Below the pieces are notes generated by a model that was not told the DNA's origin, did not search any database, and saw only the letters and a list, made by a program, of their open reading frames with translations. From IMG/VR virus record IMGVR_UViG_2563366842_000009: DNA of 29,651 nucleotides. One strand, written 5' to 3'. Positions 7,592 to 29,651 of this stretch are shown here, in pieces. The DNA is from a virus. Lineage: Duplodnaviria > Heunggongvirae > Uroviricota > Caudoviricetes. A program made the position numbers and the translations under genes. Position 1 is the first letter of the stretch. Each line of letters starts with the position of its first letter.

Positions 7592-7664
7592 TTCATATCC
7601 ATATCATGCACATACAGCAATCACCCTATTCATTTTTTTCTTCCCATCTTTTACCAATACGTGC

Positions 7665-7684: not shown

Positions 7685-7704
7685 CACCCTATGGGAGGGA
7701 TTTC

Positions 7705-7887: not shown

Positions 7888-7890
7888 ATT

Positions 7891-8124: not shown

Positions 8125-8130
8125 TAAACG

Positions 8131-8165
8131 CCGCCAGCGCTGAAACTCGCTTTCAGTGCTGGCGG
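8131..8165. terminator. Hairpin between convergent genes (15-bp stem with 1 mismatch, loop ctcgc); candidate bidirectional terminator
   Basis: ccgccagcgctgaaa / tttcagtgctggcgg inverted repeat located between the DinI-like stop (8124) and the stop of the minus-strand 312-aa gene (8198). Confidence 0.5.
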
Positions 8166-8197
8166 GGTTGAACAACGAGCTACGCGAGGCGTTAGTG

Positions 8198-9136: not shown

Positions 9137-9373
9137 ATCTTTCTCCGTTCAAAAATAGGCTCGATAGTTATGGAGAGGCTATCATGTTTGGAAATAGCCA
9201 ATGTTCGTGATTTTTGTAAATTTAAGGTGATTTATCAATAAATAAGCTGTGCATGCAACAGGTGCATGGTTTTGCATGCGTCAGGCTTGCCCGTTCTGGT
9301 AGTGCGCCGCCAGAGCTGGCACGGATCCAGAGTGGTCATGCAACTGCATTAAAACCGACCCATAAAGCGGGCA

Positions 9374-9392
9374 GGCGTGGCGGGGAAAGCAT
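9374..9392. other. Candidate cos site (19-nt cohesive-end sequence GGCGTGGCGGGGAAAGCAT)
   Basis: Matches the 186 cohesive-end sequence as I recall it, differing at 2 of 19 positions from the recalled P2 cos; lies about 180 bp downstream of the portal gene Q, as expected for P2-family phages. Confidence 0.6.
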
Positions 9393-9533
9393 TGCGCGCC
9401 AGAGGTGGTGCGTAATAATAAAAATTATCGTCTGAGCGCGCCATGATGGCGCGTTTATGGTCGCTTTCGATTCGTTGGTGGTTGGGTGTGGTAGTGCGCG
9501 TGCGGCGCGTCTGAGGCGTGATGGTGGCGGGGT

Positions 9534-14549: not shown

Positions 14550-14552
14550 ACC

Positions 14553-15305
14553 ATGACGAGTCCCGCACAGCGTCACATGATGCGGGTCTCGGCCTCTCAA
14601 GCCGCGCAGCGGGAGCAAGCCCCGCTGCGCCATGCAACCGCCTATGAGCAGATGCTGGTTAAGCTGGCCGATGACCGTCGCACGTTAAAAAACATCCGTT
14701 CAAACGAACGTAAAGCCGAGAAAAAGCGCGAGCTGCTGCCGTTCTATGCGCCGTGGGTCGCCGGTGTGCTGGCTGATGGCCGTGGTGCGCAGGATGACAT
14801 TGTCATGACCGTCATGCTGTGGCGTCTCGATGCCGGTGATATCGCTGGCGCGCTGGAAATTGCCCCCTACGCGCTGAAATACGGCCTCACTTCTGACCAT
14901 CGCCGCACCACACCTTACATGCTGGTTGAGGAAGTGGCACTTGCCTCGCAGCGTCTGCGCGATGCCGGTGAGTCTGTCGACCTTTCCTGGCTGCAGACCA
15001 CTATCGACCTGACCGACGGCGCAGACGTTCCCGATATGGTGCGCGCCCGTCTGCATAAGGTGACAGGCCTGACCCTGCGTGATGCCGGTATGAATGCAGA
15101 GGCGCTGGCGCAGTTTCAGCGCGCGATGCAGCTCGACCGCAATGCCGGTGTGCGCAAGGAGATTGAGCGACTGGAACGGGCATTGAAGCCAAAGCCAGAG
15201 GCCGCACCCCGTAAAACGACTAAACCGCGCACGCGCAAACCTGCCACCAGACCGGCAGCAAAGCGCGGGCGTCCACCAAAGGCGGCAAAACCGCCGGTTA
15301 ACTGA
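14553..15305 (+). CDS. M: Terminase small / endonuclease subunit (P2 gpM family)
   Basis: 250 aa with a basic Pro/Lys/Arg-rich C-terminal tail; position after N as in P2. Confidence 0.85.
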   Translation: MTSPAQRHMMRVSASQAAQREQAPLRHATAYEQMLVKLADDRRTLKNIRSNERKAEKKRELLPFYAPWVAGVLADGRGAQDDIVMTVMLWRLDAGDIAGALEIAPYALKYGLTSDHRRTTPYMLVEEVALASQRLRDAGESVDLSWLQTTIDLTDGADVPDMVRARLHKVTGLTLRDAGMNAEALAQFQRAMQLDRNAGVRKEIERLERALKPKPEAAPRKTTKPRTRKPATRPAAKRGRPPKAAKPPVN

Positions 15306-15393
15306 ACGCTCCCCGAGCCGGGCGGCACGCCGGTCAAAGCAGGCAAAGACCTGACGGCGACCGGCGTCCACCGCCCAACCTGATGAGGTTGTC

Positions 15394-15900
15394 ATGACGA
15401 CAGTGATACTGAACCAGCCCGATGAACCGCAGGACGTACCGGGCGTGGTGATTCCCGCACCGGAGACGGGCGGTGCAGTGATTAAAAACACGTTCTTTTT
15501 CCCTGATGTGGATCCGAAGCGCGTGCGCGAACTGATGCGCCTTGAGCAGACGGTTTCCGATGCGCGCCTGCGCAATGCCATCAAGACCGGCATGGCCGAG
15601 ACCAATGCGGAGCTTTACGACTACCGGCTGCGCCAGACTGCCGCCGGGTTTAAGCAACTGGCCGACGTGCCTGCCGAGGAAATCGACGGCGAGAATGTGC
15701 GCGTTTTCCACTACCTCAGCGCCGTGACGGCGATGGCGACCGCCACCCTGTATGAGCGTTATCGCGGCGTTGAGGCCACCGGCAAGGGTGACAAAAAAGC
15801 CGACAGTGTGGAAACCACCATTGATGACCTGTGGCGGGATATGCGCTGGTCAGTTGCGCGTCTGCAGGACAAGCCGCGCTGCATAGTGGGTCAGCTCTGA
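15394..15900 (+). CDS. L: Head completion/stabilisation protein (P2 gpL family)
   Basis: 168 aa; synteny and size match P2 L. Confidence 0.85.
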   Translation: MTTVILNQPDEPQDVPGVVIPAPETGGAVIKNTFFFPDVDPKRVRELMRLEQTVSDARLRNAIKTGMAETNAELYDYRLRQTAAGFKQLADVPAEEIDGENVRVFHYLSAVTAMATATLYERYRGVEATGKGDKKADSVETTIDDLWRDMRWSVARLQDKPRCIVGQL

Positions 15901-16103
15901 TGAAAGTCAGGGCAATGCAGGGCGACACCCTCGATGCGATTTGCGCCCGGTATTACGGGCGCACTGAGGGCGTGGTCGAGACGGTGCTGCAGGCTAATCC
16001 GGGTCTGTCTGAGCTGGGAGTCATTCTGCAGCATGGTACCGAGATTGACCTGCCCGATGTGCCGTCTTCACCAGTAACTAACACTATCAATCTTTGGGAG
16101 TAA
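15900..16103 (+). CDS. X: Tail protein X (P2 gpX family)
   Basis: Start at ATG 15900 overlapping the L stop (ATGA); 67 aa MKVRAMQGDTLDAICARYYGRTEGVVETVLQANPGLSELG... closely matches P2 X as recalled. The track ORF beginning at 15831 is an upstream extension. Confidence 0.9.
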   Translation: MKVRAMQGDTLDAICARYYGRTEGVVETVLQANPGLSELGVILQHGTEIDLPDVPSSPVTNTINLWE

Positions 16104-16106
16104 ACC

Positions 16107-16403
16107 ATGACAGAAGGGGAAAAAGGCGTCCTGTCACTGTTTGTGATTGGCGTGATGATTGTTGTCGGGAAAGTGCTGGCAGGTGGTGAGCCCATCACCC
16201 CGCGCCTGTTTGTCGGACGCATGCTGCTCGGCGGTTTCGTTTCGATGGTCGCCGGTGTTGTTCTGGTGCAGTTTCCGGATATGTCACTGCCTGCCGTGTG
16301 CGGGATTGGATCCATGCTCGGCATTGCCGGTTATCAGGTGGTGGAAATCGCCATACAGCGCCGCTTTAAGTCACAGAAAGGGGAAGACAATGCCGGTCAT
16401 TAA
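16107..16403 (+). CDS. Y: Holin (P2 gpY family)
   Basis: 98 aa with hydrophobic transmembrane segments and a charged C-terminus, directly upstream of the endolysin. Confidence 0.85.
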   Translation: MTEGEKGVLSLFVIGVMIVVGKVLAGGEPITPRLFVGRMLLGGFVSMVAGVVLVQFPDMSLPAVCGIGSMLGIAGYQVVEIAIQRRFKSQKGEDNAGH

Positions 16404-16887
16404 TACTCACCAGAATATCGCCGCCTTTCTGGACATGCTGGCGTATTCCGAAGGAACAGCGAACCATCCGCTGACGAAAAACCGTGGCTATGACGTCATT
16501 GTCACCGGTCTTGATGGTAAGCCAGAGATTTTCACCGATTACAGCGACCACCCTTTCGCACATGGCCGACCACCGAAAGTGTTTAATCGCCGTGGTGAGA
16601 AATCCACGGCATCGGGGCGTTACCAGCAGCTTTATCTGTTCTGGCCGCACTATAAAAAACAGCTCTCGTTGCCTGATTTCAGTCCACTGTCGCAGGACAG
16701 GCTCGCGATCCAGTTAATCCGGGAACGCGGTGCTATTGACGATATCCGGGCGGGGCGTATTGAGCGTGCTGTTTCCCGTTGTCGCAATATATGGGCGTCA
16801 TTACCGGGTGCCGGTTACGGCCAGCGCGAGCACAGTCTCGAAAAGCTGGTCACTGTCTGGCGCACGGCTGGCGGGGTGGTGGCATGA
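16390..16887 (+). CDS. K: Endolysin / lysozyme (P2 gpK family)
   Basis: Start at ATG 16390 (MPVINTHQNIAAFLDMLAYSEGT...), overlapping the holin 3' end; the track ORF from 16159 carries a spurious N-terminal extension. Sequence matches P2 K as recalled. Confidence 0.9.
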   Translation: MPVINTHQNIAAFLDMLAYSEGTANHPLTKNRGYDVIVTGLDGKPEIFTDYSDHPFAHGRPPKVFNRRGEKSTASGRYQQLYLFWPHYKKQLSLPDFSPLSQDRLAIQLIRERGAIDDIRAGRIERAVSRCRNIWASLPGAGYGQREHSLEKLVTVWRTAGGVVA

Positions 16888-17297
16888 AAGTCCTGATAAC
16901 GCTGCTTGTGCTGGCTGTGCTCGGGTTGCTGTGGTTGCGCCATGAGAACGGCAATTTATCCCGCTCTTTTGAGGCGGCAAATCGTGTCGCGAGCGAGCAA
17001 AAGACGACGATTGGCATGCTGAAAAATCAGCTCAGTGTTGCCGGTCAGCTCGCCCGACGTAATGAATCCGCGCAGGTGGCACTGCGCGAGCAGCTCGCAA
17101 AGGCAAGTGCAGAAGCCAGCCGCCGTGAGCAGACGATAACGAGGTTACTTAATGAAAATGAAGCCTTTCGCCGCTGGTATAACGCTGCTCTGCCTGATGT
17201 TGTGCGTCGGTTGCACACCCGCCCTGCCTGCGCCAGCGCCGGTGATTGTGGTCAACGGATGCCCGAAGGTGAGCCTTTGCCCGATGCCGGGAAATGA
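16884..17297 (+). CDS. lysB: i-spanin (LysB / Rz-like)
   Basis: Start at ATG 16884 (ATGA overlap with K stop); N-terminal TMD (MKVLITLLVLAVLGLLWL) followed by a coiled-coil region and C-terminal ...RRLH.RPAC....DC.QRMPE.EPLPDAG as in P2 LysB. Confidence 0.85.
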   Translation: MKVLITLLVLAVLGLLWLRHENGNLSRSFEAANRVASEQKTTIGMLKNQLSVAGQLARRNESAQVALREQLAKASAEASRREQTITRLLNENEAFRRWYNAALPDVVRRLHTRPACASAGDCGQRMPEGEPLPDAGK

Positions 17298-17442
17298 CCC
17301 GAAAACAAATGGTGACCTGAGCGCGGATATTCGCCGTCTTGAGGGCGCGCTGACTGCCTGTGCGCTGCAGGTCAAAACCGTCAAACACTGTCAGGATGAA
17401 CTCGATGCAAAAGCACAAAAGCCTGCGCAAAGCGCTGATTAA
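17152..17442 (+). CDS. lysC: o-spanin lipoprotein (LysC / Rz1-like), embedded in and overlapping the 3' end of lysB in another frame
   Basis: Lipoprotein signal with lipobox (LMLCVG|C), Pro-rich mature region with several Cys; classic embedded/overlapping spanin architecture. Confidence 0.8.
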   Translation: MKMKPFAAGITLLCLMLCVGCTPALPAPAPVIVVNGCPKVSLCPMPGNDPKTNGDLSADIRRLEGALTACALQVKTVKHCQDELDAKAQKPAQSAD

Positions 17443-17872
17443 CGCCGTGCCGCAGCTCCGAAATAACCCCGATATGCTGCGCCTGTTTGCCGACAACGGC
17501 CATACCGATTCCCGACTGGCGAGCTCGCTGTCGTTTGAAAAGGTGTACGTGCTTAACGTGGTGGTGACTGACTTCACCGGCGACCTCGACTTGATATTTG
17601 TGCCGGTGCAGGCGTGGCTGCGTGAGCATCAGCCGGACATTATGACCACCGACGCCGGGAGGGATAAAGGATTCACCTGGATGATTGATATCAATAACGA
17701 CGATTCGCTCGATATCAGTATCAGCCTGAGACTCACCGAGCGCACGCTCGTCAAAGAGGTCGACGGCGCACTGCACGTCAGCTATGCGCCGGAGCCGTCG
17801 CTGCCTGAACCCGTGACGCGCCCGGTCGAGCTGTACGTTAACGGTGAGCTGGTGAGTAAGTGGGATGAGTGA
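17405..17872 (+). CDS. R: Tail completion protein R (P2 gpR family)
   Basis: Start chosen at ATG 17405 (155 aa, matching the P2 R length); strong recalled similarity (NPDMLR.F.DNG, SLSFEK.Y.LNV.VTDFTGD.DL, PDIMTTD, ELYVNGELVSKWDE). Confidence 0.9.
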   Translation: MQKHKSLRKALINAVPQLRNNPDMLRLFADNGHTDSRLASSLSFEKVYVLNVVVTDFTGDLDLIFVPVQAWLREHQPDIMTTDAGRDKGFTWMIDINNDDSLDISISLRLTERTLVKEVDGALHVSYAPEPSLPEPVTRPVELYVNGELVSKWDE

Positions 17873-18314
17873 GTTAACCGCACTGCAGGAGCGCCTTGCC
17901 GGTCTGATTGCCAGCCTGTCACCGGCGGCGCGTCGTCAAATGGCGGCTGAGATTGCGAAAAAGCTGCGCGCCAGTCAGCAACAGCGCATTAAGCGGCAGC
18001 AGGCACCCGACGGCACCCCGTATGCCGCGCGAAAGCGCCAGCCGGTGCGGAGCAAGAAAGGGCGCATTAAGCGCGAAATGTTCACCAGACTGCGCACCAG
18101 TCGCTTTATGAAAGCCAAAGGCAGCGACAGTGCGGCGGTGGTGGAGTTTACCGGCAAGGTGCAGCGCATGGCGCGGGTGCATCAGTACGGGCTCAAAGAC
18201 CGGCCAAACCGCAACAGCCGCGATGTGCAGTACGAGGCGCGCCCGTTGCTCGGTTTCACTCATGACGATGAGCAGATGATTGAAGACGTCATTCTCAGTC
18301 ACCTCGGCAAATAA
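17865..18314 (+). CDS. S: Tail completion protein S (P2 gpS family)
   Basis: 149 aa; overlaps the R stop; matches P2 S. Confidence 0.9.
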   Translation: MSELTALQERLAGLIASLSPAARRQMAAEIAKKLRASQQQRIKRQQAPDGTPYAARKRQPVRSKKGRIKREMFTRLRTSRFMKAKGSDSAAVVEFTGKVQRMARVHQYGLKDRPNRNSRDVQYEARPLLGFTHDDEQMIEDVILSHLGK

Positions 18315-18382
18315 ATATTGTGTGAGCCATCACCGGAGCCGCGCGAATTGGCGCGGCTCCAGACCAGAGGCATTCTTGCACT

Positions 18383-19024
18383 ATGAATACGTTATCCACT
18401 CTACAGGAGCTCGCGCGCGCAATTCGCAACCTCATCCGCTCAGGTGTGGTGACTGAGGTCGATACCGTGCAGGGGCTGTGCCGCGTACAAAGCGGCGGGA
18501 TCCAGACTACATGGCTGAACTGGCTTACTACCCGCGCCGGTCGTTCTCGTACATGGTGGGCTCCCTCGGTCGGTGAGCAGGTACTGCTGCTGGCGATTGG
18601 TGGTGAGCTTGATACCGCTTTCGTGCTGCCGGGAATTTTTTCCGACGATAACCCCGCCCCGTCAGCCTCGGCGGATGCGTGGCATGTGGTGTTCCCTGAT
18701 GGCGCGGTTATGGAGTATGAGCCGGAAACCGGTGCACTGACGGTCAGCGGCATCAAAACTGCCGATGTGACGGCATCGGAGTCCATCACCGCCACCGTGC
18801 CGGTGGTGCTGGTTAAAGCGGCAGAGCGTATCACCCTCGACACCCCGGAGGTGGTCTGCACCAACAAACTGACGACGGCGACGCTTGAGGTGCGGAAAGG
18901 CGGCACCATGCGGGGAAACATCGAACATACCGGCGGTACGTTGAAATCAAATGGTGTGCAGGTTGATGACCACGGTCACGGTGGCGTGCAACGGGGCGGG
19001 AGCTGGACGGAGGGCACCAAATGA
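18383..19024 (+). CDS. V: Baseplate spike / assembly protein V (P2 gpV family)
   Basis: 213 aa; first gene of the baseplate operon; synteny. Confidence 0.85.
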   Translation: MNTLSTLQELARAIRNLIRSGVVTEVDTVQGLCRVQSGGIQTTWLNWLTTRAGRSRTWWAPSVGEQVLLLAIGGELDTAFVLPGIFSDDNPAPSASADAWHVVFPDGAVMEYEPETGALTVSGIKTADVTASESITATVPVVLVKAAERITLDTPEVVCTNKLTTATLEVRKGGTMRGNIEHTGGTLKSNGVQVDDHGHGGVQRGGSWTEGTK

Positions 19025-19368
19025 CGGCGCGCTATATGGGGATGAACCGCAATACCGGCATTGCTATCCGTGACAGTGAGCATATCAGCCAGAGCATGCG
19101 CGACATTCTGCTGACGCCGGTCGGCTCGCGGGTAATGCGTCGTGAATATGGCTCGCTCCTGTCTGCGTTGATTGATATGCCGCAAACCCCGGCGCTCAGG
19201 CTGCAAATCATGGTGGCGTGCTATTCCGCGATCCAGAAGTGGGAACCACGCATCAGGCTTACATCCATCAGTTTTGAGCACGGCGACACTGGCGAAATGT
19301 ATGTCGATATTACCGGGATGCGTACCGATACCGGTACGTCAGTTTCAACCACTGTTTCACTGAGTTAA
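19021..19368 (+). CDS. W: Baseplate wedge protein W (gp25-like)
   Basis: 115 aa, ATGA-coupled to V; same size as P2 W. Confidence 0.85.
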   Translation: MTARYMGMNRNTGIAIRDSEHISQSMRDILLTPVGSRVMRREYGSLLSALIDMPQTPALRLQIMVACYSAIQKWEPRIRLTSISFEHGDTGEMYVDITGMRTDTGTSVSTTVSLS

Positions 19369-19374
19369 ACCACT

Positions 19375-20283
19375 ATGGCAACTGTTGACCTGAGTCTGCT
19401 ACCTGTTCCTGATGTGGTCGAGGAACTGGACTATGAAACTATCCTTGCGGAGCGCATTGCGACGCTGATTTCGCTCTATCCAGAAGACCAGCAGGAAGCC
19501 GTCGCCCGGACGCTCGCGCTTGAGTCTGAGCCGGTTGTTAAGCTACTGCAGGAAAACGCCTACCGTGAGGTTATCTGGCGTCAGCGTGTCAATGAGGCTG
19601 CGCGCGCAGTCATGCTGGCTTATGCCATAGACAGTGACCTCGATAATATCGGGGCGAATTTCAATGTTGAGCGCCTTGTCGTCACGCCTGCTGACGACAC
19701 CACTATTCCACCCACCCCGGCAGAGATGGAACTCGACGCCGATTATCGTCTGCGCATACAACAGGCTTTCGAAGGAATGAGCGTGGCAGGCTCTACGGGG
19801 GCTTATGAATTTCATGGCCGCAGTGCTGACGGGCGTGTCGCTGATATTTCTGTTATCAGCCCATCCCCTGCGTGCGTCACGATATCAGTGCTCTCGCGTG
19901 AGAATAACGGCGCGGCGTCTGATGAACTTCTGAGCATTGTACGCAATGCGCTTAATGGTGAGGACGTGAGGCCGGTTGCTGACCGTGTAACTGTGCAGTC
20001 GGCTCAGATTGTTGATTACCAGATACGCGCAACGCTTTTCATTTATCCGGGGCCGGAAAGTGAGCCGATTCGCGCAGCAGCTGAGGCGAAGCTCAAAGCC
20101 TATGCCAGCGCTCAACACCGGTTAGGGCGGGATATTCGCCTGTCGGCCATCTATGCCGCGTTACATGTTGAGGGGGTGCAGCGTGTCGAGCTGGCGGCGC
20201 CAGTGGCTGACATTGTGCTTGATAAAACGCAGGCCTCCTTTTGCACTGACTATCAGATAGTGATTGGTGGCTCTGATGAGTGA
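19375..20283 (+). CDS. J: Baseplate protein J
   Basis: 302 aa, same length as P2 J; synteny. Confidence 0.85.
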   Translation: MATVDLSLLPVPDVVEELDYETILAERIATLISLYPEDQQEAVARTLALESEPVVKLLQENAYREVIWRQRVNEAARAVMLAYAIDSDLDNIGANFNVERLVVTPADDTTIPPTPAEMELDADYRLRIQQAFEGMSVAGSTGAYEFHGRSADGRVADISVISPSPACVTISVLSRENNGAASDELLSIVRNALNGEDVRPVADRVTVQSAQIVDYQIRATLFIYPGPESEPIRAAAEAKLKAYASAQHRLGRDIRLSAIYAALHVEGVQRVELAAPVADIVLDKTQASFCTDYQIVIGGSDE

Positions 20284-20809
20284 TGCGCGCCTGTTACCTG
20301 TAGGCTCATCACCTCTTGAGGTGGCTGCTGCCCGTGCCTGTGCAGATATTGAAAACACACCCATTCCGTTACGCCGTCTGTGGAGCCCTGACACCTGTCC
20401 TGCAAACCTTTTGCCGTGGCTGGCGTGGGCGTTTTCCGTTGACCGCTGGGATGAGAACTGGCCGGAAGAAACCAAGCGGGACGTTATTCGCAGTGCGTAT
20501 TACATCCACTGTCACAAAGGGACGATAGGCGCTGTGCGGCGTGTGGTCGAGCCGCTCGGTTACGTCATTAACGTTACTGAGTGGTGGGAGAATGACGACC
20601 CGGCAGGCACTTTTCGTCTTGATATCGGTGTACTGGAAAGCGGTATCACCGAAGAAATGTATTTAGAAATGGAGCGGTTAATTGCGGATGCAAAACCCGC
20701 AAGCCGTCACCTGATTGGTCTGAATATTATCCAGGACATAGCGGGCTATATGTACACCGGCGGTGTGGCATATGACGGCGACATTATTACGGTTTACCCG
20801 GAAGAGTGA
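20276..20809 (+). CDS. I: Baseplate/tail fibre attachment protein I
   Basis: Start at ATG 20276 overlapping the J stop; 177 aa, about the P2 I size. Confidence 0.8.
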   Translation: MSDARLLPVGSSPLEVAAARACADIENTPIPLRRLWSPDTCPANLLPWLAWAFSVDRWDENWPEETKRDVIRSAYYIHCHKGTIGAVRRVVEPLGYVINVTEWWENDDPAGTFRLDIGVLESGITEEMYLEMERLIADAKPASRHLIGLNIIQDIAGYMYTGGVAYDGDIITVYPEE

Positions 20810-20815
20810 GGAATA

Positions 20816-22735
20816 ATGAGCAAAAAATTCAAAACAATTATTACCACTGCCGGTGCTGAAAAGCTGGCTGCTGCCACTGTGCCGGGTGGTAAAAAAGTGA
20901 ACCTTACTGCGATGGCTGTCGGTGATGGTGGCGGCACGCTGCCGGAGCCAAGCGCCGGTCAGACAACGCTCATTAATGAAGTCTGGCGTCATGCGCTGAA
21001 TAAAATCAGCCAGGACAACAAAAAGAAAAACTATATCGTGGCAGAGCTGGTCATCCCTCCTGATGTGGGAGGCTTCTGGATGCGCGAGCTGGGTCTGTAT
21101 GATGATGCAGGCGCGCTGATTGCCGTTGCCAATATGGCTGAAAGTTACAAGCCGAAGCTGGCCGAGGGGTCGGGGCGTGCGCAGACCTGTCGCATGGTGA
21201 TTATTGTCAGCAACGTTGACTCGGTAGAGTTGTCCATTGATGCAACAACGGTGATGGCAACGCAGGATTATGTTGACGACAAACTCGCCGAGCATGAACA
21301 GTCCCGCAAACATCCTGACGCCACGCTGAACGAAAAAGGTTTTGTCCAGCTCAGCAGCGCCACCGACAGCACGTCTGAGAACCTCGCAGCGACGCCGAAA
21401 GCGGTTAAGGCGGCGTATGACCTTGCCAGTGGTAAATATACGGCTCAGGACGCGAGCACAGCGCAAAAGGGCATTGTGCAACTCAGTAGCGCAACTGATA
21501 GCAGTGACGAAGGGAAGGCTGCAACCCCGAAAGCGGTTAAGGCTGCGTATGACCTTGCGAATGGTAAATATACAGCTCTGGATGCGAGCACAACGCAAAA
21601 GGGTATTGTTCGCCTCAACAGTGCAATTGACAGTGATGCTGAAAATCTTGCAGCGACATCGAAAGCAGTAAAAATAGCGATGGAAAATGCAAATGCAAGA
21701 CTCGCTAAAGACAGAAATGGCGGTGACATTCCTAATAAGCAGTTATTTATTCAAAACATAGGCATGCAGGATACTGTAAATAAGGCTGACGGAGCTATTC
21801 AGAGGTCTGGCGACAACATGACAGGCCCTCTTGGTCTCACACGAACATCCTCCTTTGGTGTGGCTACTGAGAACGCGCTAGGTGGAAATTCCATTGCCAT
21901 CGGTGACAGCGATTCAGGGTTTAAGTCAAATGGTGACGGTAACATTGCGCTGATGGCAAATGGTGTTCTTGCCGGGTATTTTTCGGAAAATGAATTACAG
22001 CACCGGAAAAAAATGCTGACAAAAATTTTTCAGGCCATTGCAGAAAACAACTGGACGGAAGGTGCCGGAGGTTTTGGTTCGCAACTTGGAAGTGGCGCAC
22101 CTTTTATCAGTCCGCGAATAACCCGACCAAATGATGACAACAATTATTTCCCTTTCTGGAAGCAAATTGTCTCTCTTGTCTCTGGTTATCCCGTTGCCGC
22201 TTCAATGGGGTTAATGACGACCGGGAAAACAAATTTCCCTCAGATTGTTATTCATGCGAAAACAGATTTTGATGTCAATGACAAGCTATGGGTTTTTGAT
22301 GTGGCATCAGGAGAGTTCAGAAGCCCAGGCCGTTTGTTAGGTACTGAAATATTTCTTTCAGGAAAGACGCGAATTGCGGCCGATGGAAACATTAACAGTG
22401 ATGTATGGGGCGGCTGGCTGAGTGATTATTTAAACAATACCTATAATAAAAAAAATACGGCAACACTGGGGTTCTCAGGCTGGAGCCGTGATGAGTCAAC
22501 GGGGCTGATTATGCAGTGGGGTAACGTGGATAACGCTAACGGAACCTACTCATTTCCACGGGCATTCAGTGATACCTGTTTTGCTGTCTTTGCGACGAAC
22601 AAAGACGGACAGGGTGGTGCTATTGATAATGCTTATGGCTATCCGGTAAGCAAAACGCAATTCCGTCTGGCCTGTAAGGCGAACTCTGGCGCTGATACAG
22701 CATACGGCATTTCATGGTTTGCACTGGGGTACTGA
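20816..22735 (+). CDS. H: Tail fibre protein H with internal tandem repeats and a divergent low-GC receptor-binding C-terminus
   Basis: 639 aa; conserved N-terminus (baseplate-proximal), three tandem 44-aa repeats (KG[FI]VQLSSATDS...[26 protein letters not shown] 21335..21712), AT-richer C-terminal half. Confidence 0.9.
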
Positions 22736-22737
22736 TA

Positions 22738-23157
22738 ATGACTGAACAATATTACTACAGCTATTCGGCGAAAGGTTTTTTCTGGCTGTGTGAAGATGAG
22801 CTAAAGGGGAATGATATTCCCGCTGACCTTATACCCGTCAGCGAGGAAGAGCACGCCGCAATGTTTCTTGGTCAGGAACGGGGTAAATACATTAACCATA
22901 CGCCTGATGGACCAGTTCTGGTTGACCAGCCGGATTACTCGCCAGAAGAACTCATTGCGCAGGCGGAAAGCAAAAAGTCACGTCTGATGCAGACGGCTAA
23001 CGCAGAGATTGCCCCATTGCAGGATGCAGTTGATTTGGGGATTGCGACGACAAAAGAGATTGCCGCGTTGTCTGAATGGAAGAAATACCGGGTTATGCTG
23101 ATGCGTATTGATTGTCGGGCGATTCCTGATATTAACTGGCCTGACGCACCGGTATGA
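22738..23157 (+). CDS. G: Tail fibre assembly chaperone (P2 gpG / Tfa family)
   Basis: Start at ATG 22738 just after the H stop; C-terminal region ...[13 protein letters not shown]...WPDAP typical of Tfa chaperones. Confidence 0.8.
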
Positions 23158-23160
23158 AAG

Positions 23161-23186
23161 AAGCGGGTTAAACCCGCTTTCTTTTT
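23161..23186 (+). terminator. Intrinsic terminator after G (stem aagcgggt / acccgctt, then TCTTTTT)
   Basis: Perfect 8-bp stem with a 3-nt loop, followed by a T-run, immediately after the G stop codon. Confidence 0.7.
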
Positions 23187-23285
23187 ACCCTGCTGTTGTA
23201 TCACCCCTTGCCCAACGCCGACAAATAGCCCACCGTTACAGCACAACAGAAAATACGCTCACCCCTTAACCACGGAGTTAACCGG

Positions 23286-24464
23286 ATGAGTGATTTTCAC
23301 CACGGCGTACAGGTGCTTGAAATTAACGACGGCACCCGCGTCATTTCCACTGTTTCGACCGCTATCATCGGCATGGTCTGCACGGCAAGTGATGCGGATG
23401 CGAAGCTATTCCCCCTCAATGAGCCGGTACTGATTACCAATGTGCAAAGCGCCATTGCGAAAGCCGGTAAAAAAGGCACGCTGGCAGCCTCTCTGCAGGC
23501 CATCGCCGACCAGGCTAAACCTGTCACTATTGTTGTGCGCGTTGCCGAAGGTACCGGCGACGACGCAGAAGCGCAGACCGTTACCAACATCATCGGTGGC
23601 ACGGATGAGAACGGCAAATACACCGGTATTAAAGCGCTGTTGACTGCCGAAGCGGTTACCGGCGTTAAGCCGCGTATTCTCGGCGTGCCGGGTCTCGATA
23701 CACAGGAGGTGGCGGTCGCACTTGCGTCAGTCGCTATCAAACTACGCGCATTTTGCTATGTCAGCGCGTGGGGCTGTAAAACCATTTCCGAGGCGATGGC
23801 CTATCGCGAGAATTTCAGCCAGCGCGAACTGATGGTCATCTGGCCTGACTTCCTCGCATGGGATACCACCGCAAACGCCACTGCCACGGCATACGCCACC
23901 GCCCGCGCACTCGGTCTGCGTGCCTACATCGACCAGACTATCGGCTGGCACAAAACGCTGTCTAACGTTGGCGTACAGGGCGTCACTGGCATCAGTGCCT
24001 CAGTCTTTTGGGATTTGCAGGCATCCGGCACCGATGCTGACCTGCTCAACGGGGCCGGAGTCACAACGCTGGTTCGCAAGGATGGTTTCCGCTTTTGGGG
24101 AAACCGCACCTGCTCTGATGACCCGCTTTTCCTGTTTGAGAACTACACACGCACCGCGCAGGTACTGGCCGACACGATGGCTGAGGCGCACATGTGGGCG
24201 GTCGATAAACCCATCACTGCATCGCTCATCCGTGACATTGTCGACGGTATTAACGCCAAATTCCGCGAGCTGAAATCTAACGGTTACATCGTGGACGGTG
24301 AATGCTGGTTCGATGAGGAATCGAATGACAAGGAAACCCTCAAGGCCGGGAAACTGTATATCGACTACGACTATACACCGGTTCCCCCACTGGAAAGCCT
24401 GACCCTGCGCCAGCGTATCACCGATAAATATCTGGTGAATCTGGCCGAATCGGTCAACAGCTAA
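23286..24464 (+). CDS. FI: Contractile tail sheath protein (P2 gpFI family)
   Basis: 392 aa; N-terminus MSDFHHGVQVLEINDGTRVISTVSTAIIGMVCTASDAD... matches P2 FI as recalled. Confidence 0.95.
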   Translation: MSDFHHGVQVLEINDGTRVISTVSTAIIGMVCTASDADAKLFPLNEPVLITNVQSAIAKAGKKGTLAASLQAIADQAKPVTIVVRVAEGTGDDAEAQTVTNIIGGTDENGKYTGIKALLTAEAVTGVKPRILGVPGLDTQEVAVALASVAIKLRAFCYVSAWGCKTISEAMAYRENFSQRELMVIWPDFLAWDTTANATATAYATARALGLRAYIDQTIGWHKTLSNVGVQGVTGISASVFWDLQASGTDADLLNGAGVTTLVRKDGFRFWGNRTCSDDPLFLFENYTRTAQVLADTMAEAHMWAVDKPITASLIRDIVDGINAKFRELKSNGYIVDGECWFDEESNDKETLKAGKLYIDYDYTPVPPLESLTLRQRITDKYLVNLAESVNS

Positions 24465-24479
24465 GGAGCCTGAAACAAC

Positions 24480-25001
24480 ATGGCACTACCCCGCAAACTT
24501 AAATATCTGAACATGTTCAATGACGGCCTTAGCTATATGGGCGTTGTTGAATCCGTGACGCTGCCGAAGCTGACCCGCAAGCTCGAAAACTATCGCGGCG
24601 GCGGCATGAATGGCGCGGCGGCGATTGACCTCGGCCTCGACGATGATGCACTTACCGTCGAATGGTCTGTCGGTGGCCTGCCTGATGTGGCGCTGTGGGC
24701 GCAGTATGCCGCGCCGGGTGCTGATGCCGTGCCGCTGCGTTTTGCTGGCTCTTACCAGCGTGACGACACTGGCGAAATCGTGGCAGTCGAGGTGGTCATG
24801 CGTGGCCGTCATAAAGAAATCGACGGCGGCGAGAATAAGCAGGGTGAAAACACCTCGACCAAACTGTCGACCGTTTGCACCTATTACCGCCTCACGATTG
24901 ATGGTAGCGACATTATCGAAATCGACACCGTCAACATGGTCGAGAAGGTGAACGGCGTCGACCGTCTGGAACAGCACCGCCGCGCAATCGGGCTACTGTA
25001 A
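24480..25001 (+). CDS. FII: Tail tube protein (P2 gpFII family)
   Basis: 173 aa directly after the sheath gene. Confidence 0.9.
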   Translation: MALPRKLKYLNMFNDGLSYMGVVESVTLPKLTRKLENYRGGGMNGAAAIDLGLDDDALTVEWSVGGLPDVALWAQYAAPGADAVPLRFAGSYQRDDTGEIVAVEVVMRGRHKEIDGGENKQGENTSTKLSTVCTYYRLTIDGSDIIEIDTVNMVEKVNGVDRLEQHRRAIGLL

Positions 25002-25064
25002 TTCCCTGACCGGTCAGCACCGCTGGCCGGTTATTACTCCCATTCAAAGCAGAGAAAAAACATC

Positions 25065-25400
25065 ATGGCAAAAGCACCACGCAAAACCCCTGAATTTGTT
25101 GACCCGGCTGGCAATGAAATTGACACCGTAAACCCGAATGTCGTGACCCTCGACAAGCCGATTAAGCGTGCTGGTCAGACGATTGAAAAGGTCACCCTGA
25201 TTGAACCGAACGCAGGCACCCTGCGCGGCGTCAGTCTGGCGGCAGTGGCGCAGTCCGAGGTCGATGCGCTGATTAAGGTGCTGCCCCGCATGACCTACCC
25301 GGCACTCACCACGCAGGAACTTACCGCAATGAACCTGCCCGATATGCTGTCACTGGCCGCTAAGGTGATTGGTTTTTTGTCACCGGCTTCGGCGGAATAG
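25065..25400 (+). CDS. E: Tail assembly chaperone E (zero-frame product)
   Basis: 111-aa ORF between the tube and tape-measure genes, containing the slippery heptamer TTTTTTG near its 3' end. Confidence 0.85.
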   Translation: MAKAPRKTPEFVDPAGNEIDTVNPNVVTLDKPIKRAGQTIEKVTLIEPNAGTLRGVSLAAVAQSEVDALIKVLPRMTYPALTTQELTAMNLPDMLSLAAKVIGFLSPASAE

Positions 25401-25552
25401 ACTTCCCGCCCGACCTGTCGACCGATGACCTGATGGCGGATATCGCAGTGATATTCCACTGGCCGCCATCAGAGCTCTATTCCCTGAGCCTGTGCGAGCT
25501 CATCACATGGCGCGAAAAGGCGCTGCAGCGTAGCGGAAACCACAATGAGTAA
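25065..25552 (+). CDS. E': Tail assembly chaperone E+E' (-1 programmed frameshift product; shift at TTTTTTG 25373..25379)
   Basis: After a -1 slip at T6G, the reading frame continues ...FFVTGFGGIDFPPDLSTDDLMADIAVIFHWPPSELYSLSLCELITWREKALQRSGNHNE, which matches the P2 E' C-terminus as recalled, ending at TAA 25550..25552 overlapping the T start. Confidence 0.8.
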
Positions 25553-27986
25553 TAACCTGAGGCTTGAGGTATTGCTGAAAGCGGTCGACCAGGCGACCCG
25601 ACCGCTTAAATCTATCCAGACCGCGAGTAAAACCCTGTCGGGTGATATTCGCACCACACAAAAAGGGCTGCGTGACCTGAATGGTCAGGCGTCGAAAATC
25701 GACGGCTTTCGTAAGACAAGTGCGCAACTGGCCGTAACCGGTCAGGCGCTTGAAAAAGCGAAACGTGAAGCCGAGGAGCTTGCCACCCAATTTAAAAATA
25801 CCGAACGGCCAACGCGTGCGCAGGCGCAGGTGCTTGAATCGGCAAAACGTGCGGCTGATGGTCTGCAGGTCAAATACAACAGCCTCACCGAGTCGGTAAA
25901 ACGCCAGCAACGCGAACTGGGTGCTGCCGGAATCAATACCCGCAACCTTGCTAATGACGAGCGAGGATTAAAAAACCGCATCAGTGAAACGACAGCACAA
26001 CTCAACCGGCAGCGCGAGGCGCTGGCGAAGGTCAGCGCACAGCAGGCGCACTTAAACCGCGTGAAAGAACGATATAAATCAGGTAAGGAGCTTGCCGGTA
26101 ACATGGCCGCAGCAGGCGCTGCCGGGGTAGGTATTGCGACAGCGGGAACGATGGCCGGGGTTAAATTGCTGATGCCCGGTTATGACTTTGCGCAGAAAAA
26201 TTCCGAGCTGCAGGCTGTGCTCGGGGTCGATAAGCAGTCGCCAGAAATGGAGGCGTTACGCAAACAGGCACGCCAGCTCGGTGACAATACCGCCGCTTCT
26301 GCAGATGATGCAGCCAGTGCGCAAATTATCATTGCAAAAGGTGGCGGTGATGCGGCAGCTATAGCGGCCATGACACCTGTGACTCTCAACCTGTCACTTG
26401 CGAACAGAAAAACAATGGAGGAAAACGCGCAACTGTTGATGGGGACAAAAGCCGCCTTTCAGCTTTCTAATGACGCGGCTGCGCATATCGGTGATGTTCT
26501 TTCAACCACGATGAACAAAACCACCGCTGATTTTCAGGGACTAAGTGACTCATTAAGTTACCTTGCCCCTGTTGCGAAAAATGCTGGAGTGAGTCTTGAA
26601 CAAGCGGCGGCGATTACCGGCACACTTCATGATAATAACATCAGGGGGTCAATGGCTGGGACGGGCGGCGCTGCTGTTATAACGAGACTACAGGCACCCA
26701 CAGGCAAAGCATACGATGCTCTCAAGGAGTTGGGAGTTAAAACCTCGGACAGCAAAGGCAATACGCGCCCATTATTTACCATCCTGAAAGAAATGCAGGC
26801 CAGTTTTAAGCGCAACAATCTTGGTACCTCACAAAAGGCCGAGTACGTGAAAACGATATTCGGCGAGGAGGCTATGAAGTCTGCAAGTGTCCTTATGGCG
26901 GCAGCAGCAAGCGGAAAACTCGATAAGCTAACTGCCACGATAAAGGATTCAGACGGTAAAACAGAGGAACTGGTCAAGGTTATGCAGGATAACCTCGGCG
27001 GCGACTTTAAAGAGTTTCAATCCGCTTATGAGGCCGTCGGCACCGACCTCTACGACCAGCAAGATAGCTCATTGCGTCAGCTAACTCAGACAGCAACGCG
27101 GTATGTGCTAAAGCTTGATGACTGGATCAAAGACAACAAGGAGTTAGCGGAAACTATCGGCATCATCGCCGGTGGTGCACTGGCTCTGATTGGTATCATC
27201 GGCGGTATTGGCCTCGTTGCGTGGCCGGTTGTTATGGGGATTAACGCCATTATCGCTGCTGCTGGCGTGCTGGGTACGGTCTTTACTGTCACCGGAGGTG
27301 CCATTGTGACCGCACTCGGCGCGATTACCTGGCCGATTGTCGCAGCGGGGGCGGCGATTGTGGCCGGGGCGCTACTCATCCGTAAATATTGGGAGCCCAT
27401 CAGCGCATTTTTCTCGGGAGTGATTGAGGGCATCATGAGCGCCTTTGCCCCTGTCGGGGAAATGTTCGCTCCACTGGCTCCCATTTTTGATGGTCTCGGC
27501 GAGAAACTGCGCGGTGTCTGGCAGTGGTTTAAAGACCTGATAGCACCGGTCAAGGCCACGCAGGAAACGCTCGATAGCTGCAAAAATGTTGGCGTCATAT
27601 TTGGTCAGGCGCTAGCCGATGCTCTGATGTTGCCTCTGAATATTTTCAATAAGCTGCGTGGTGGCCTCGATGTAATTCTCGAAAAACTAGGCCTCGTTAA
27701 AAAAGAATCGAGCAGCATTGATAAGGAAACAGCGAAAGTACCGCCGGTTGGTCAGGGTGGAGGATATATTCCGACGACCAGTTCGCTTGGTGGATATCGG
27801 GCTTATCAGCCCGTCACGGCTCCCGCTGGCCGTACCTACATTGACCAAAGCAGCCCAACCTATCAAATCACCCTGTCGGGTGGTGGCGCTCCGGGCGGTC
27901 AGTTGGGTAATCAGTTGCAGGATGCGTTAGAAAAGTATGAACGCGACAAGCGAGCCAAAGCCCGCGCCAGCATGATGCACGATTGA
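25545..27986 (+). CDS. T: Tail tape measure protein (P2 gpT family)
   Basis: 813 aa, coiled-coil-rich, with a long Gly/Ala/Ile-rich hydrophobic segment typical of tape-measure proteins; synteny. Confidence 0.9.
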   Translation: MSNNLRLEVLLKAVDQATRPLKSIQTASKTLSGDIRTTQKGLRDLNGQASKIDGFRKTSAQLAVTGQALEKAKREAEELATQFKNTERPTRAQAQVLESAKRAADGLQVKYNSLTESVKRQQRELGAAGINTRNLANDERGLKNRISETTAQLNRQREALAKVSAQQAHLNRVKERYKSGKELAGNMAAAGAAGVGIATAGTMAGVKLLMPGYDFAQKNSELQAVLGVDKQSPEMEALRKQARQLGDNTAASADDAASAQIIIAKGGGDAAAIAAMTPVTLNLSLANRKTMEENAQLLMGTKAAFQLSNDAAAHIGDVLSTTMNKTTADFQGLSDSLSYLAPVAKNAGVSLEQAAAITGTLHDNNIRGSMAGTGGAAVITRLQAPTGKAYDALKELGVKTSDSKGNTRPLFTILKEMQASFKRNNLGTSQKAEYVKTIFGEEAMKSASVLMAAAASGKLDKLTATIKDSDGKTEELVKVMQDNLGGDFKEFQSAYEAVGTDLYDQQDSSLRQLTQTATRYVLKLDDWIKDNKELAETIGIIAGGALALIGIIGGIGLVAWPVVMGINAIIAAAGVLGTVFTVTGGAIVTALGAITWPIVAAGAAIVAGALLIRKYWEPISAFFSGVIEGIMSAFAPVGEMFAPLAPIFDGLGEKLRGVWQWFKDLIAPVKATQETLDSCKNVGVIFGQALADALMLPLNIFNKLRGGLDVILEKLGLVKKESSSIDKETAKVPPVGQGGGYIPTTSSLGGYRAYQPVTAPAGRTYIDQSSPTYQITLSGGGAPGGQLGNQLQDALEKYERDKRAKARASMMHD

Positions 27987-27999
27987 GGAGACACAGCTT

Positions 28000-28485
28000 A
28001 TGATGCTTGCACTAGGAATGTTTGTGTTTGAACGCCGCACCCTGCCTTATCAGTCGATGCAACACTCGAAGGGTTACCGCTGGGTGTCTAATGACAGGGT
28101 TGGTAAACCTCCCGCTTATCAGTTTCTCGGTGAGGGGGAAACCTCCATTCAGCTTGCCGGTACACTTTACCCTGCCATTACCGGTGGCCGTATATCACTG
28201 AGGGCTGTTGAACTGATGGCCGACGAGGGCAGAGCGTGGCCGCTGATTGAGGGTACCGGCAATATCCTCGGGATGTATATCGTCGATAAAGTCTCGACTA
28301 CACACACCGAGTTTTTCAGTGATGGCGCGGCCAGAAAGATTGATTTCACACTTTCGCTGAAACGGGTCGACGAATCACTGGCGGCGATGTTTGGCGACCT
28401 GAATAAGCAGGCAGGCGAACTGCTTGGCTCTGCCGGTAATCTGACCGATAAGCTGCAGGGTATGCTCGGAGGGCTGACCGCATGA
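28000..28485 (+). CDS. U: Tail protein U (P2 gpU family)
   Basis: 161 aa; follows T; ATGA-coupled to D. Confidence 0.85.
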   Translation: MMLALGMFVFERRTLPYQSMQHSKGYRWVSNDRVGKPPAYQFLGEGETSIQLAGTLYPAITGGRISLRAVELMADEGRAWPLIEGTGNILGMYIVDKVSTTHTEFFSDGAARKIDFTLSLKRVDESLAAMFGDLNKQAGELLGSAGNLTDKLQGMLGGLTA

Positions 28486-29651
28486 TGACGGGCATGACCA
28501 TTGACGCCGGGGCAAGCCTTGCACCGGCATTTATGCTGACACTGAACAGCCAGGACATTACCAGCAATTTTAGTGACCGGTTGATTTCTCTCACTATGAC
28601 CGACAACCGGGGTTTTGAAGCTGACCAGCTAGACATTGAGCTCGACGATACTGACGGCAAAGTCGAGTTACCACTGCGCGGCGCGGTGCTGACGCTGTGG
28701 CTTGGCTGGCAGGGTTCGGCACTTCTGAATAAGGGCGATTTCACGGTTGATGAGATTGAGCACCGAGGCGCGCCTGATACGCTGACCATTCGTGCGCGTA
28801 GCGCAGATTTTCGCGGAACACTCAATTCACGGCGTGAGGAATCATGGCACGACACCACTCTCGGTGAGCTGGTCAGCGCCATCGCAAAACGCAATAAACT
28901 GACGGCCAGCGTCGCGGATTCGCTGAAAAAAATCCCGGTACCGCATATTGACCAGTCGCAGGAGTCCGACGCAGTATTTTTGACCAGACTGGCTGAGCGC
29001 AACGGGGCGGCAGTATCAGTGAAAGCGGGGAAATTGCTGTTTCTGAAAGCCGGTAGCGCAGTGACGGCCAGCGGTAAACCCGTCCCACAAATGACACTGA
29101 CCCGCGGTGATGGTGACCGTCATCAGTTTGCCATTGCCGACCGTGGGGCTTATACCGGCGTAACGGCAAAATGGTTGCACACCAAAGACCCTAAGCCGCA
29201 AAAGCAAAAGGTAACGCTGAAACGTAAACCAAAAGAGAAGCACCTGCGCGCACTGGAACACCCGAAAGCAAAGCCGGTCAGCAAAAAGACAAAAGCCAAA
29301 AAAGAGCAGGAAGCGCGCGAGGGTGAGTATATGGCCGGTGAGGCTGATAACGTGCTGGCGCTGACGACGGTCTACGCTTCAAAGGCTCAGGCGATGCGAG
29401 CAGCTCAGGCTAAGTGGGATAAGTTGCAGCGAGGCGTTGCGGAGTTTTCAATTACGCTGGCGCTCGGTCGAGCTGATTTATTCCCTGAGACACCAGTGCG
29501 CGTGTCGGGCTTTAAGCGTGTCATAGATGAGCAGGCATGGTTAATCAGTAAGGTAACTCACAATCTGAATAATAATGGATTCACGACGGGCTTAGAGCTT
29601 GAGGTTAAGCTCTCCGATGTGGAGTACAGCTCAGAGGAAAGCGAAAGCTGA
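28482..29651 (+). CDS. D: Tail protein D (late tail gene, P2 gpD family)
   Basis: 389 aa, complete, with the stop codon forming the last 3 nt of the window; contains a Lys-rich segment (KPKPQKQKVTLKRKPKEKH...). Confidence 0.85.
   Translation: MMTGMTIDAGASLAPAFMLTLNSQDITSNFSDRLISLTMTDNRGFEADQLDIELDDTDGKVELPLRGAVLTLWLGWQGSALLNKGDFTVDEIEHRGAPDTLTIRARSADFRGTLNSRREESWHDTTLGELVSAIAKRNKLTASVADSLKKIPVPHIDQSQESDAVFLTRLAERNGAAVSVKAGKLLFLKAGSAVTASGKPVPQMTLTRGDGDRHQFAIADRGAYTGVTAKWLHTKDPKPQKQKVTLKRKPKEKHLRALEHPKAKPVSKKTKAKKEQEAREGEYMAGEADNVLALTTVYASKAQAMRAAQAKWDKLQRGVAEFSITLALGRADLFPETPVRVSGFKRVIDEQAWLISKVTHNLNNNGFTTGLELEVKLSDVEYSSEESES

Follow-up and report, generated by a model that had tools for sequence, protein, structure and literature searches.

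Evidence for an Exchanged Host-Range Cassette in the Modular Tail Fibre of a Phage 186-like Prophage

The viral record IMGVR_UViG_2563366842_000009 of IMG/VR, a stretch of 29,651 nucleotides (nt) that was analyzed at its full length and is referred to below as the window, carries a tail fibre gene, H, which is directly followed by gene G, encoding a tail fibre assembly protein (Tfa). Our analysis points to H being a modular fibre with an exchanged host-range cassette in a 186-like prophage of Escherichia coli, an explanation to which, taken as a whole, we assign a probability of about 85%. An initial annotation of this DNA had proposed such an exchange for the C-terminal part of H together with G, and the comparisons described here support that proposal while shifting the right-hand limit of the exchanged unit.

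A Fibre Cassette Shared Among Tail Backbones

The half of the window that holds the tail genes (14000–29651) aligns over ∼15.6 kb, at 88–93% nt identity, with the Salmonella phages PHB48, BIS20, PSP3, SEN1, and SW9 and with Escherichia phage 186, all of them Eganvirus (Peduoviridae), and each of these alignments falls into two parts, between which the end of the fibre gene is left out. Relative to 186 and PHB48, identity is 86–89% up to ∼21540–21563, falls to 75–79% through the last of the repeat units that H carries, and is lost by ∼21762; from there on the sequences cannot be aligned until homology returns at 23173 for PHB48 and at 23212 for 186, within the spacer that holds the terminator and the late promoter, and the divergence from both phages fades out within 23190–23285. 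The same situation has been described for the genus, in which each member has different fibre and Tfa genes despite the common backbone, and in which the fibre gene contains a recombination hotspot (PMC8986868).

The cassette of the window is a different one again, with its nearest counterparts in the E. coli prophages EC6868 and S1-CAM-04-C and in Mu-like prophages of Salmonella and Enterobacter. A megablast search with H and G against the phage collection returned nothing past the N-terminal third of H, and blastn against the same collection gave only a match of 68% identity to Fels-2 and SJ46 over some of the distal region; close relatives emerged solely from protein searches and from E. 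coli genomes. A protein search with H residues 306–639 retrieved 261 relatives, mostly fibres of 330–560 amino acids (aa) that lack the P2-type N-terminal domain. The cassette recurs in a Mu-like prophage of Salmonella Montevideo with a baseplate of the Mu gp45/46/47/48 type (locus L086; 94% aa identity, with homology from H residue 317), in Enterobacter Mu-like prophages (L087; 81%, from residue 285), next to a different P2-type baseplate (L089; 93%, from residue 295), and in an unrelated myovirus prophage of E. coli JNE25-001 (L003; 85%, from residue 256, with 85% nt identity over 21640–22977). An Enterobacter plasmid carries it at 87% nt identity, and most of it is present in only two of 5426 complete E. 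coli genomes, namely EC6868 and S1-CAM-04-C, whose prophages are siblings of that in the window at 95% nt identity; the EC6868 prophage is, moreover, inserted at the same rplS site.

The combination of flanks that are 86–95% identical to 186 and PHB48 with a cassette that cannot be aligned to either, together with the presence of the same cassette behind four unrelated baseplate modules at 81–94% aa identity, supports the reading of the distal part of H and G as a horizontally exchanged host-range module. Collinearity with one single reference fibre had been put forward initially as an argument against exchange, and such collinearity does exist, as the sibling EC6868 is 95% identical at the nt level over H and G; because siblings carry the same recombinant fibre, this observation does not refute the mosaicism.

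In the small cluster of loci with this cassette in common, the identity to the window switches in blocks of 100–300 nt. EC6868 (locus L002), for example, is 100% identical at 22016–22215 and 43% identical at 22316–22415, whereas L026 is 71–75% identical over the former segment and 94% over the latter; L026 also remains 96–98% identical from repeat unit 2 onward while its N-terminal domain is only 72–82% identical, which places that particular joint inside unit 1. No part is more variable than the patch at which EC6868 and L026 exchange roles, which lies just 5′ of the tip domain. We note that in L005 this patch contains a 34-residue insertion with a tandem duplication of ∼20 aa (NSQLATRDANINARATVDWV, present twice). 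The abrupt switches seen against L002, L026, and L005 have the appearance of a recombination signature rather than of gradual divergence.

Base Composition of the Cassette

The initial annotation had also pointed to a lower GC content in the C-terminal part of H and in G than in the genes upstream, and formal calculation bears this out, as the composition of the region is not uniform. The GC content is 0.554 in J, 0.535 in I, 0.530 in the N-terminal domain of H, and 0.508 in the repeats, drops to 0.459 in the C-terminal part of H and 0.485 in G (compared to 0.53–0.55 upstream), and is 0.560 in the sheath gene, while GC content at third codon positions (GC3) falls from 0.55–0.65 in the neighboring genes to 0.42–0.49 (0.424 in the C-terminal part of H vs 0.649 in the sheath gene). 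A two-breakpoint likelihood fit over 19000–25000 delimits a low-GC block at 21560–23330, with 0.466 inside and 0.554 outside the block and a log-likelihood gain of 19.5. This block is the sole stretch below 0.50 GC within the late-gene block 9500–29651; the early region (1–9500) is also AT-rich. We propose that acquisition from a shared pool would account for the lower GC and GC3 of the cassette.

The same composition could also be produced by amino acid and structural constraints on fibre tips, in which case the region would be vertically inherited and fast-evolving. Fibre tips are compositionally unusual, the translated distal part of H is rich in Asn, Ser, Gly, and Thr, and the divergence from 186 and PHB48 could in principle reflect rapid diversifying evolution. 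However, GC3, which is largely free of amino acid constraint, drops as well; the cassette stays highly similar behind baseplates that have no homology to that of the window (the Mu gp45–48 type and others), while 186 and PHB48 become unalignable between well-conserved flanks; and the identity profiles switch in blocks, as described above. We consider an origin through constraint and vertical inheritance to be extremely improbable, and in fact largely refuted already.

Co-variation of the Fibre Tip and the Tfa Protein

G matches the Tfa family PF02413 and has the conserved C-terminal domain of these proteins, with residues 57–138 matching Mu U (5yvq_B residues 98–174, E 1.8e-9). Its start is most likely the ATG at 22738, 2 nt past the stop codon of H, rather than the upstream ATG at 22714, because the RefSeq annotation of EC6868 and the gene call in the related locus L085 both use the equivalent of 22738. 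The N-terminal domain of G is near-identical in all five carriers of the cassette, and the last ∼55 residues diverge among them.

The same division can be seen in a broader sample of 65 nonredundant pairs of H and G, in which the mean pairwise identity is 85% for H residues 1–173 compared to 26% for the C-terminal 150 residues of H, and in which the N-terminal domain of G co-varies with the C-terminus of H (Spearman ρ = 0.54). Of the 1665 pairs with H C-termini below 30% identity, not one has G N-terminal domains that are >60% identical, whereas the G C-terminal domains exceed 60% in 69 of these pairs and the H N-terminal domains exceed 90% in 239; conversely, where the H C-termini are >60% identical, the G N-terminal domain is shared as well in 63 of 68 pairs. 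A variable N-terminal domain that is matched to its cognate fibre tip is what characterizes a Tfa protein, and the domain pattern of G agrees with the published two-domain model of Mu Tfa, in which the nonconserved N-terminal domain binds the fibre tip and the conserved C-terminal domain serves trimerization (PMC9608196). By analogy, G would be expected to act as a chaperone for trimerization of the fibre. The near-identity of the N-terminal domain among the carriers, taken together with its co-variation with the tip, suggests that the functional cassette comprises H residues ∼317–639 and G residues 1 to ∼82. The unit originally described as the H C-terminus plus G thus stands as a module, but in comparison with the other cassette carriers it would end in the middle of G.

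The Left Joint and Its Crossover-like Site

In the record of phage 186, gene K carries an annotated "Mu-like inversion crossover site", and the aligned position in the window, 21747–21772, reads TTATTCAAAACATAGGCATGCAGGAT. Homology to 186 and PHB48 stops at this site, and homology to L086 begins there. In comparison with the gix consensus, 19 of the 26 positions match, and we interpret the site as a probable vestige of an invertase crossover site. A search of the whole window for gix-like sites with up to 8 mismatches (≤8) returned this site on the + strand as the only one, with no inverted partner. No serine invertase gene is present among the genes of the window, in which the terminator, the late promoter region, and the sheath gene come directly after G, and no minus-strand Tfa or fibre open reading frame (ORF) lies 3′ of G that could represent a second, oppositely oriented cassette of fibre end and Tfa. 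None of the three hallmarks of an invertible segment of the Mu G, P1 C, or e14 P kind (Gin, Cin, and Pin), that is, an adjacent invertase, two inverted sites, and a second inverted cassette, is therefore found here. Lacking both an invertase and a partner site, the cassette of the window is fixed and unable to switch.

It is nevertheless conceivable, although in our view unlikely, that the lone site is still functional, and that serine invertases acting in trans (e14 Pin or Gin/Cin of the Mu/P1 type) used it for intermolecular capture of the cassette. A proposal along these lines by Sandmeier, concerning invertase-site-like sequences that border fibre segments, is cited in PMC8986868. This scenario would fit with the coincidence of the left edge of the cassette with the site relative to 186, PHB48, and L086, and with the presence of the same cassette (93% aa identity) inside a real invertible segment in L089, where inverted sites and a Resolvase-family gene accompany it. 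It fits less well with the absence of an invertase gene and a partner site from the window, with the poor conservation of the right half-site and the match to the gix consensus at 19 of 26 positions overall, and with the fact that the site encodes a conserved FIQNIG peptide, such that homologous recombination in a conserved block explains the joint equally well; in addition, the other joints (in unit 1 against L026, and mid-G against L003 and L086) are without such a site. The more far-reaching version, in which the site is a live docking point where Gin/Pin-family invertases of co-resident prophages capture cassettes of fibre end plus Tfa N-terminal domain, appears decidedly unlikely to us; if true, it would give invertase-less P2/186-like phages a site-specific entry to a shared pool of host-range cassettes.

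We also observed the following in two of the cassette carriers. In L089 (7001–10231, on a contig from Logan SRR19364675), the full invertible host-range segment holds a fibre with the window-type cassette and its Tfa; in the opposite orientation it carries a second Tfa of 111 aa and an alternative fibre end of 209 aa, and the Resolvase-family gene is also part of it. The segment is bracketed by inverted crossover-like sites at 7476–7501 (+) and 9923–9948 (−). Downstream of the cassette fibre/Tfa pair in L086, a 50-residue ORF (9311–9463) that matches HTH_7 only looks like the remnant of a decayed Gin-type invertase, i.e., another "frozen" cassette.

The 44-Codon Repeat Array

Upstream of this joint, H had been described as containing three consecutive 44-codon repeats, the third of them degenerate. 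Tandem Repeats Finder reports a single array at 21342–21666 (period 132, 2.5 copies, 73% matches, score 349), the sole long-period array of the window; Pfam PF03406 ("phage tail fibre repeats") matches in three stretches (E 1.6e-53); and a custom hidden Markov model (HMM) places the units at residues 174, 218, and 262, corresponding to unit starts at 21335, 21467, and 21599. The identity between units 1 and 2 is 76.5% at the nt level and 82% at the aa level (z = 12.9 for nt, against a baseline of 25.3 ± 4.0% for randomly paired 132-nt segments of the late region), and unit 3 resembles both over its first 81 nt (z = 8.5), whereas its last 51 nt are at chance level (27–29%). The array therefore consists of two full units and one partial unit (27 of 44 codons), which agrees with the initial description and makes it more precise. 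Unit 3 as a decayed full copy was rejected, since its last 51 nt show no relationship to units 1 and 2 and are instead part of the conserved Mu-S-type junction block, of which unit 3 forms the beginning.

To sample copy number, 80 IMG/VR loci were fetched with a fibre N-terminal domain that is 79–97% identical to that of the window, and repeats were counted with the repeat HMM in the 75 fibres that are complete. One unit is present in 7 of these, two in 26, three in 34 (the mode), four in 7, and five in 1, and in all 75 the array starts at residue 174 with a period of 44 aa, with the last unit being the weakest or truncated throughout. Phages 186 and PHB48 have two units each, compared to which an additional 132-nt unit is present in the window and in its sibling EC6868; unit 3 of the window is orthologous to the terminal unit of 186 and PHB48 (70–76% identity), and its unit 2 is 97% identical to unit 2 of L026. 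Repeat number thus varies from one to five among these relatives, as had been anticipated, and is evolutionarily labile in the family; that it would also change the length of the shaft, and with it of the fibre, is a reasonable expectation.

A locus with such a spread of copy numbers among close relatives could be an active contingency locus, at which frequent crossing-over or slippage alters fibre length and host range on short time scales. Consistent with this, the internal units of L036 and L037 are 92–98% identical, which indicates a probable recent expansion in these two relatives. The units of the window are, however, far from the near-identical tandem copies of a phase-variable locus: units 1 and 2 differ by 16 synonymous and 8 nonsynonymous codon differences at the overall identity given above, and their longest common in-register run is 17 nt, which falls below the ∼25-nt stretch usually needed for efficient RecA-dependent exchange. 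Furthermore, the number of units is exactly three in each of the sibling prophages L002, L005, and L026, all of which share the diverged unit 2 with the window. The divergence of the units and the stability of the three-unit siblings argue for variation that is evolutionary rather than phase-like, making an active contingency locus very unlikely. With only 76.5% identity between units 1 and 2, the duplication behind them is old, and the array is not built for frequent slippage.

Domain Architecture of the Fibre

The assignment of H and G as a tail fibre and its chaperone was confirmed by the Pfam matches PF12571, PF03406, and PF21882 in H and PF02413 in G, and by their location between the J/I genes and the sheath gene. 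Every testable feature of a fibre of the P2 H/186 K type was found in H: PF12571 covers residues 1–151, the PF03406 repeats follow, and the gene lies 3′ of the J/I baseplate genes and 5′ of the Tfa and sheath genes, collinear with 186, PHB48, and EC6868. The match to Mu S spans the last repeat and a sequence that ends in (I/L)G(M/L)Q(D/E)TVN. More distally, a profile built from 38 homologues of the distal part matches the C-termini of the R2 and R1 pyocin fibres (E 1.5e-7 to 1e-5 overall, and 1.5e-7 to 1.5e-6 for 6ct8, 6cl6, and 6cxb) and, more weakly, AP22 gp53 (4mtm) and the T7 gp17 tip (4a0t). The foot of the pyocin fibre binds lipopolysaccharide (LPS) and requires a Tfa-like chaperone, and on the strength of these profile matches LPS is most probably also the ligand of the distal tip of H. 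From its family assignment, H would be expected to form trimeric fibres and to function in adsorption. The coordinates of all features are collected in Table 1.

Table 1. Features of the Tail Fibre Region of the Window, with the Evidence for Each
Feature	Position	Strand	Evidence
Tail fibre gene H (P2 H/186 K homologue), 639 aa	20816..22735	+	ORF; PF12571, three PF03406 stretches, PF21882; collinear with fibre genes of 186, PHB48, EC6868
Conserved N-terminal baseplate-proximal domain, aa 1–151	20816..21268	+	PF12571 full-length match, E 8.9e-58
Repeat unit 1, aa 174–217	21335..21466	+	86–87% nt identity to unit 1 of 186 and PHB48 (orthologous)
Repeat unit 2, aa 218–261	21467..21598	+	Additional unit; 132-nt alignment gap here in 186, PHB48, JNE25
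Partial repeat unit 3, first 27 codons (frame slot 21599–21730, aa 262–305)	21599..21679	+	63–68% nt identity to units 1 and 2 over 81 nt
Mu-S-like junction block, H aa 247–347 (end of constant part and start of variable part)	21554..21856	+	phmmer match to Mu S, 5yvq_A residues 102–202, E 2.8e-30
Single gix/hix-type crossover-like site, codons for FIQNIGMQ, left cassette edge	21747..21772	+	Alignment with the site annotated in 186 K
Variable, putative receptor-binding part, aa ∼321–639, low GC	21776..22732	+	GC 0.459, GC3 0.424; 81–94% aa identity to fibres on other baseplate backbones
Hypervariable patch, aa ∼501–540, just 5′ of the tip domain	22316..22435	+	Identity switches between EC6868 and L026; most variable patch
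C-terminal tip ("foot") domain, aa 547–639	22454..22732	+	PF21882 Gp53-like_C, E 8.9e-18 (match aa 561–639)
Tail fibre assembly protein gene G/Tfa, 139 aa	22738..23157	+	PF02413 (Caudo_TAP), E 1.1e-31
Tfa N-terminal domain, aa 1–82, travels with the fibre tip	22738..22983	+	Near-identical in all five cassette carriers; nt homology to JNE25 stops at 22977
Tfa C-terminal conserved domain, aa 83–139	22984..23154	+	Diverges independently of the N-terminal domain among cassette carriers
Intrinsic terminator after G	23160..23189	+	9-bp stem, 5 G-C pairs, T-run; counterpart of 186 t45
Intergenic region before the sheath gene, homologous to the 186 activator-dependent late promoter pJ	23190..23285	+	Aligns with the region of 186 that is annotated with pJ and the B-binding site

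Prophage Backbone and Genomic Context

The identical H protein of 639 residues is already present in public assemblies, and on a contig that encodes it, the prophage adjoins rplS-trmD-rimM-rpsP-ffh, with a flank that is 99.5% identical to these genes of E. coli. This flank, in combination with the 186-like backbone, argues for the window being a phage 186-like (Eganvirus, Peduoviridae) prophage of E. coli. We observe that the prophages of L085 and EC6868 both directly adjoin rplS (ribosomal protein L19), at the same insertion locus (L085 17667–19622; L002 14981–16935). Based on the coordinate offset from L085, the window (which ends at 29651) stops at the end of the D gene, without the downstream late-activator gene, which is annotated in EC6868 as a DNA-binding transcriptional regulator.

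The order of the genes is J (19375–20283), I (20264–20809, PF09684), H, G, the terminator, the late promoter region, and the sheath gene (23286–24464, PF04984). By analogy to 186, the intergenic region before the sheath gene would function as a late promoter. A scan of 20200–23400 for terminator-like structures gave one meaningfully placed match, after G (23160–23180), with the other four being at shuffle expectation, and a sigma-70 promoter scan of the same interval found no sites, as expected because late genes are activator-dependent. Rfam at gathering thresholds found no RNA family in the whole window. Two minus-strand ORFs across the repeats (20678–21598 and 21445–21729) were dismissed, being antisense to a gene with strong homology and having no other support.

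Two further regions of the window can be mentioned here. An E-type tail assembly chaperone gene lies at 25065–25400 (PF10109 in L085), with the stretch considered running downstream to 25545; in 186 and EC6868, an overlapping frameshift ORF (GpE/E+E′) comes between the E-type gene and the tape measure gene, and the window presumably has the programmed −1 frameshift that would be expected of a P2-like phage. The stretch 7500–9500, between the replication gene A (5357–7591, PF05840) and the portal gene (9570–10616, minus strand), has the lowest GC content of the window (∼0.41) and presumably corresponds in position to the accessory/defense-gene hotspot of P2-like phages. The ORF at 8198–9136 within it (minus strand, 312 aa) has no Pfam and no PADLOC match and could be an uncharacterized cargo or defense gene.

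Relationship to Known Fibre Systems

The closest counterparts of H and G are K and Tfa of phage 186, and H and G of P2, with which the window shares the order J-I-fibre-Tfa-terminator-late promoter-sheath and a PF02413 Tfa. The N-terminal domain and first repeat are 86% identical to 186 at the nt level, and the crossover site is annotated there at the aligned position; however, K has two units and 462 aa compared to three units and 639 aa in the window, and the part distal to the crossover-like site, the whole Tfa gene, and the terminator are unalignable at the nt level. The likeness to the other Eganvirus phages (BIS20, PHB48, PSP3, SEN1, and SW9) is likewise one of backbone, since each member has a fibre end and a Tfa of its own.

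In the case of phage Mu S/U (PDB 5YVQ), the likeness is confined to H residues 247–347 (Mu S 102–202) and G residues 57–138 (Mu U 98–174), with the same two-domain logic of Tfa. In contrast to the invertible G segment of Mu, with its invertase Gin, the window has one crossover-like site and neither an invertase nor a second inverted cassette; its N-terminal baseplate domain is of the P2 type, and its distal tip is unrelated to the tip of Mu S, to which there is no match past residue 202. Finally, the R-type pyocin fibres R1 and R2 (6CL5, 6CL6, 6CT8, 6CXB) have a P2-H-like architecture, and the ∼93-residue tip of H matches their "foot", but this likeness is distant and limited to the tip, and the window fibre comes from a complete prophage rather than a tailocin.

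A Model for the Fibre and Its Cassette

In the explanation that we favor, three H chains would form the fibre, with the N-terminal domain, conserved in the lineage, docking on the J/I baseplate wedge, the PF03406 units and the Mu-S-type junction block forming the proximal shaft, and the distal part ending in a tip akin to the R-pyocin foot and gp53 that would bind a surface saccharide, probably LPS. G would bind this tip through its N-terminal domain and promote trimerization through its C-terminal domain, such that the distal part of H and the N-terminal domain of G could be viewed as one co-adapted host-range cassette. This cassette would have been acquired by recombination from a pool common to myovirus prophages of E. 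coli, Salmonella, and Enterobacter, including Mu-like ones, with the homology for the exchange likely provided by conserved stretches, namely the repeats, the Mu-S-type junction with its crossover-like site, the Tfa C-terminal domain, and the late promoter region. The left joint would fall on a conserved sequence that is at the same time a vestigial crossover site of the Gin/Pin/Cin type; the right joint, relative to other backbones, would be the boundary between the Tfa N- and C-terminal domains, while relative to 186 and PHB48 the divergence would stop at the terminator. Repeat number would shift over evolutionary time through unequal recombination between units, with the repeats doubling as recombination joints.

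Several points weigh against this explanation and should be taken into account. The transfer may have run in either direction, and because every Eganvirus differs at its fibre end, the window lineage could hold the older cassette, with 186 and PHB48 being the recombinants. The lower GC content is a hint of import and no proof. The gix-like site is embedded in a conserved coding motif, such that its conservation may reflect protein constraint only. The AlphaFold2 monomer of H residues 306–639 obtained with the 38 homologues (mean predicted local distance difference test score 41.4, predicted template modelling score 0.36) is too poor to be used for a fold search, so that the assignment of the tip is a putative one from sequence and profile matches with E values of 1e-5 to 1e-7.

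Conclusions

Mosaic fibre genes that are conserved in their 5′ part, vary in their 3′ part together with Tfa, and have invertase-site-like borders have long been established for P2, 186, Mu, P1, and e14, and this knowledge reportedly dates to Haggård-Ljungquist et al. in 1992 and Sandmeier in 1994. The system described here is thus known biology and ordinary in kind, with no new mechanism or family. Its value is as a clean worked example, in which one cassette, made up of the distal part of the fibre and the N-terminal domain of Tfa, is found at 81–94% aa identity on at least five distinct myovirus tail backbones from E. coli, Salmonella, and Enterobacter. The joints of the cassette map to a vestigial invertase site, to the interior of the 44-residue repeats, and to the border between the two domains of Tfa. 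These joints would also suggest where chimeric P2/186-type fibres or tailocins may be cut, namely after FIQNIG(L/M)Q in H and after residue ∼82 of Tfa.

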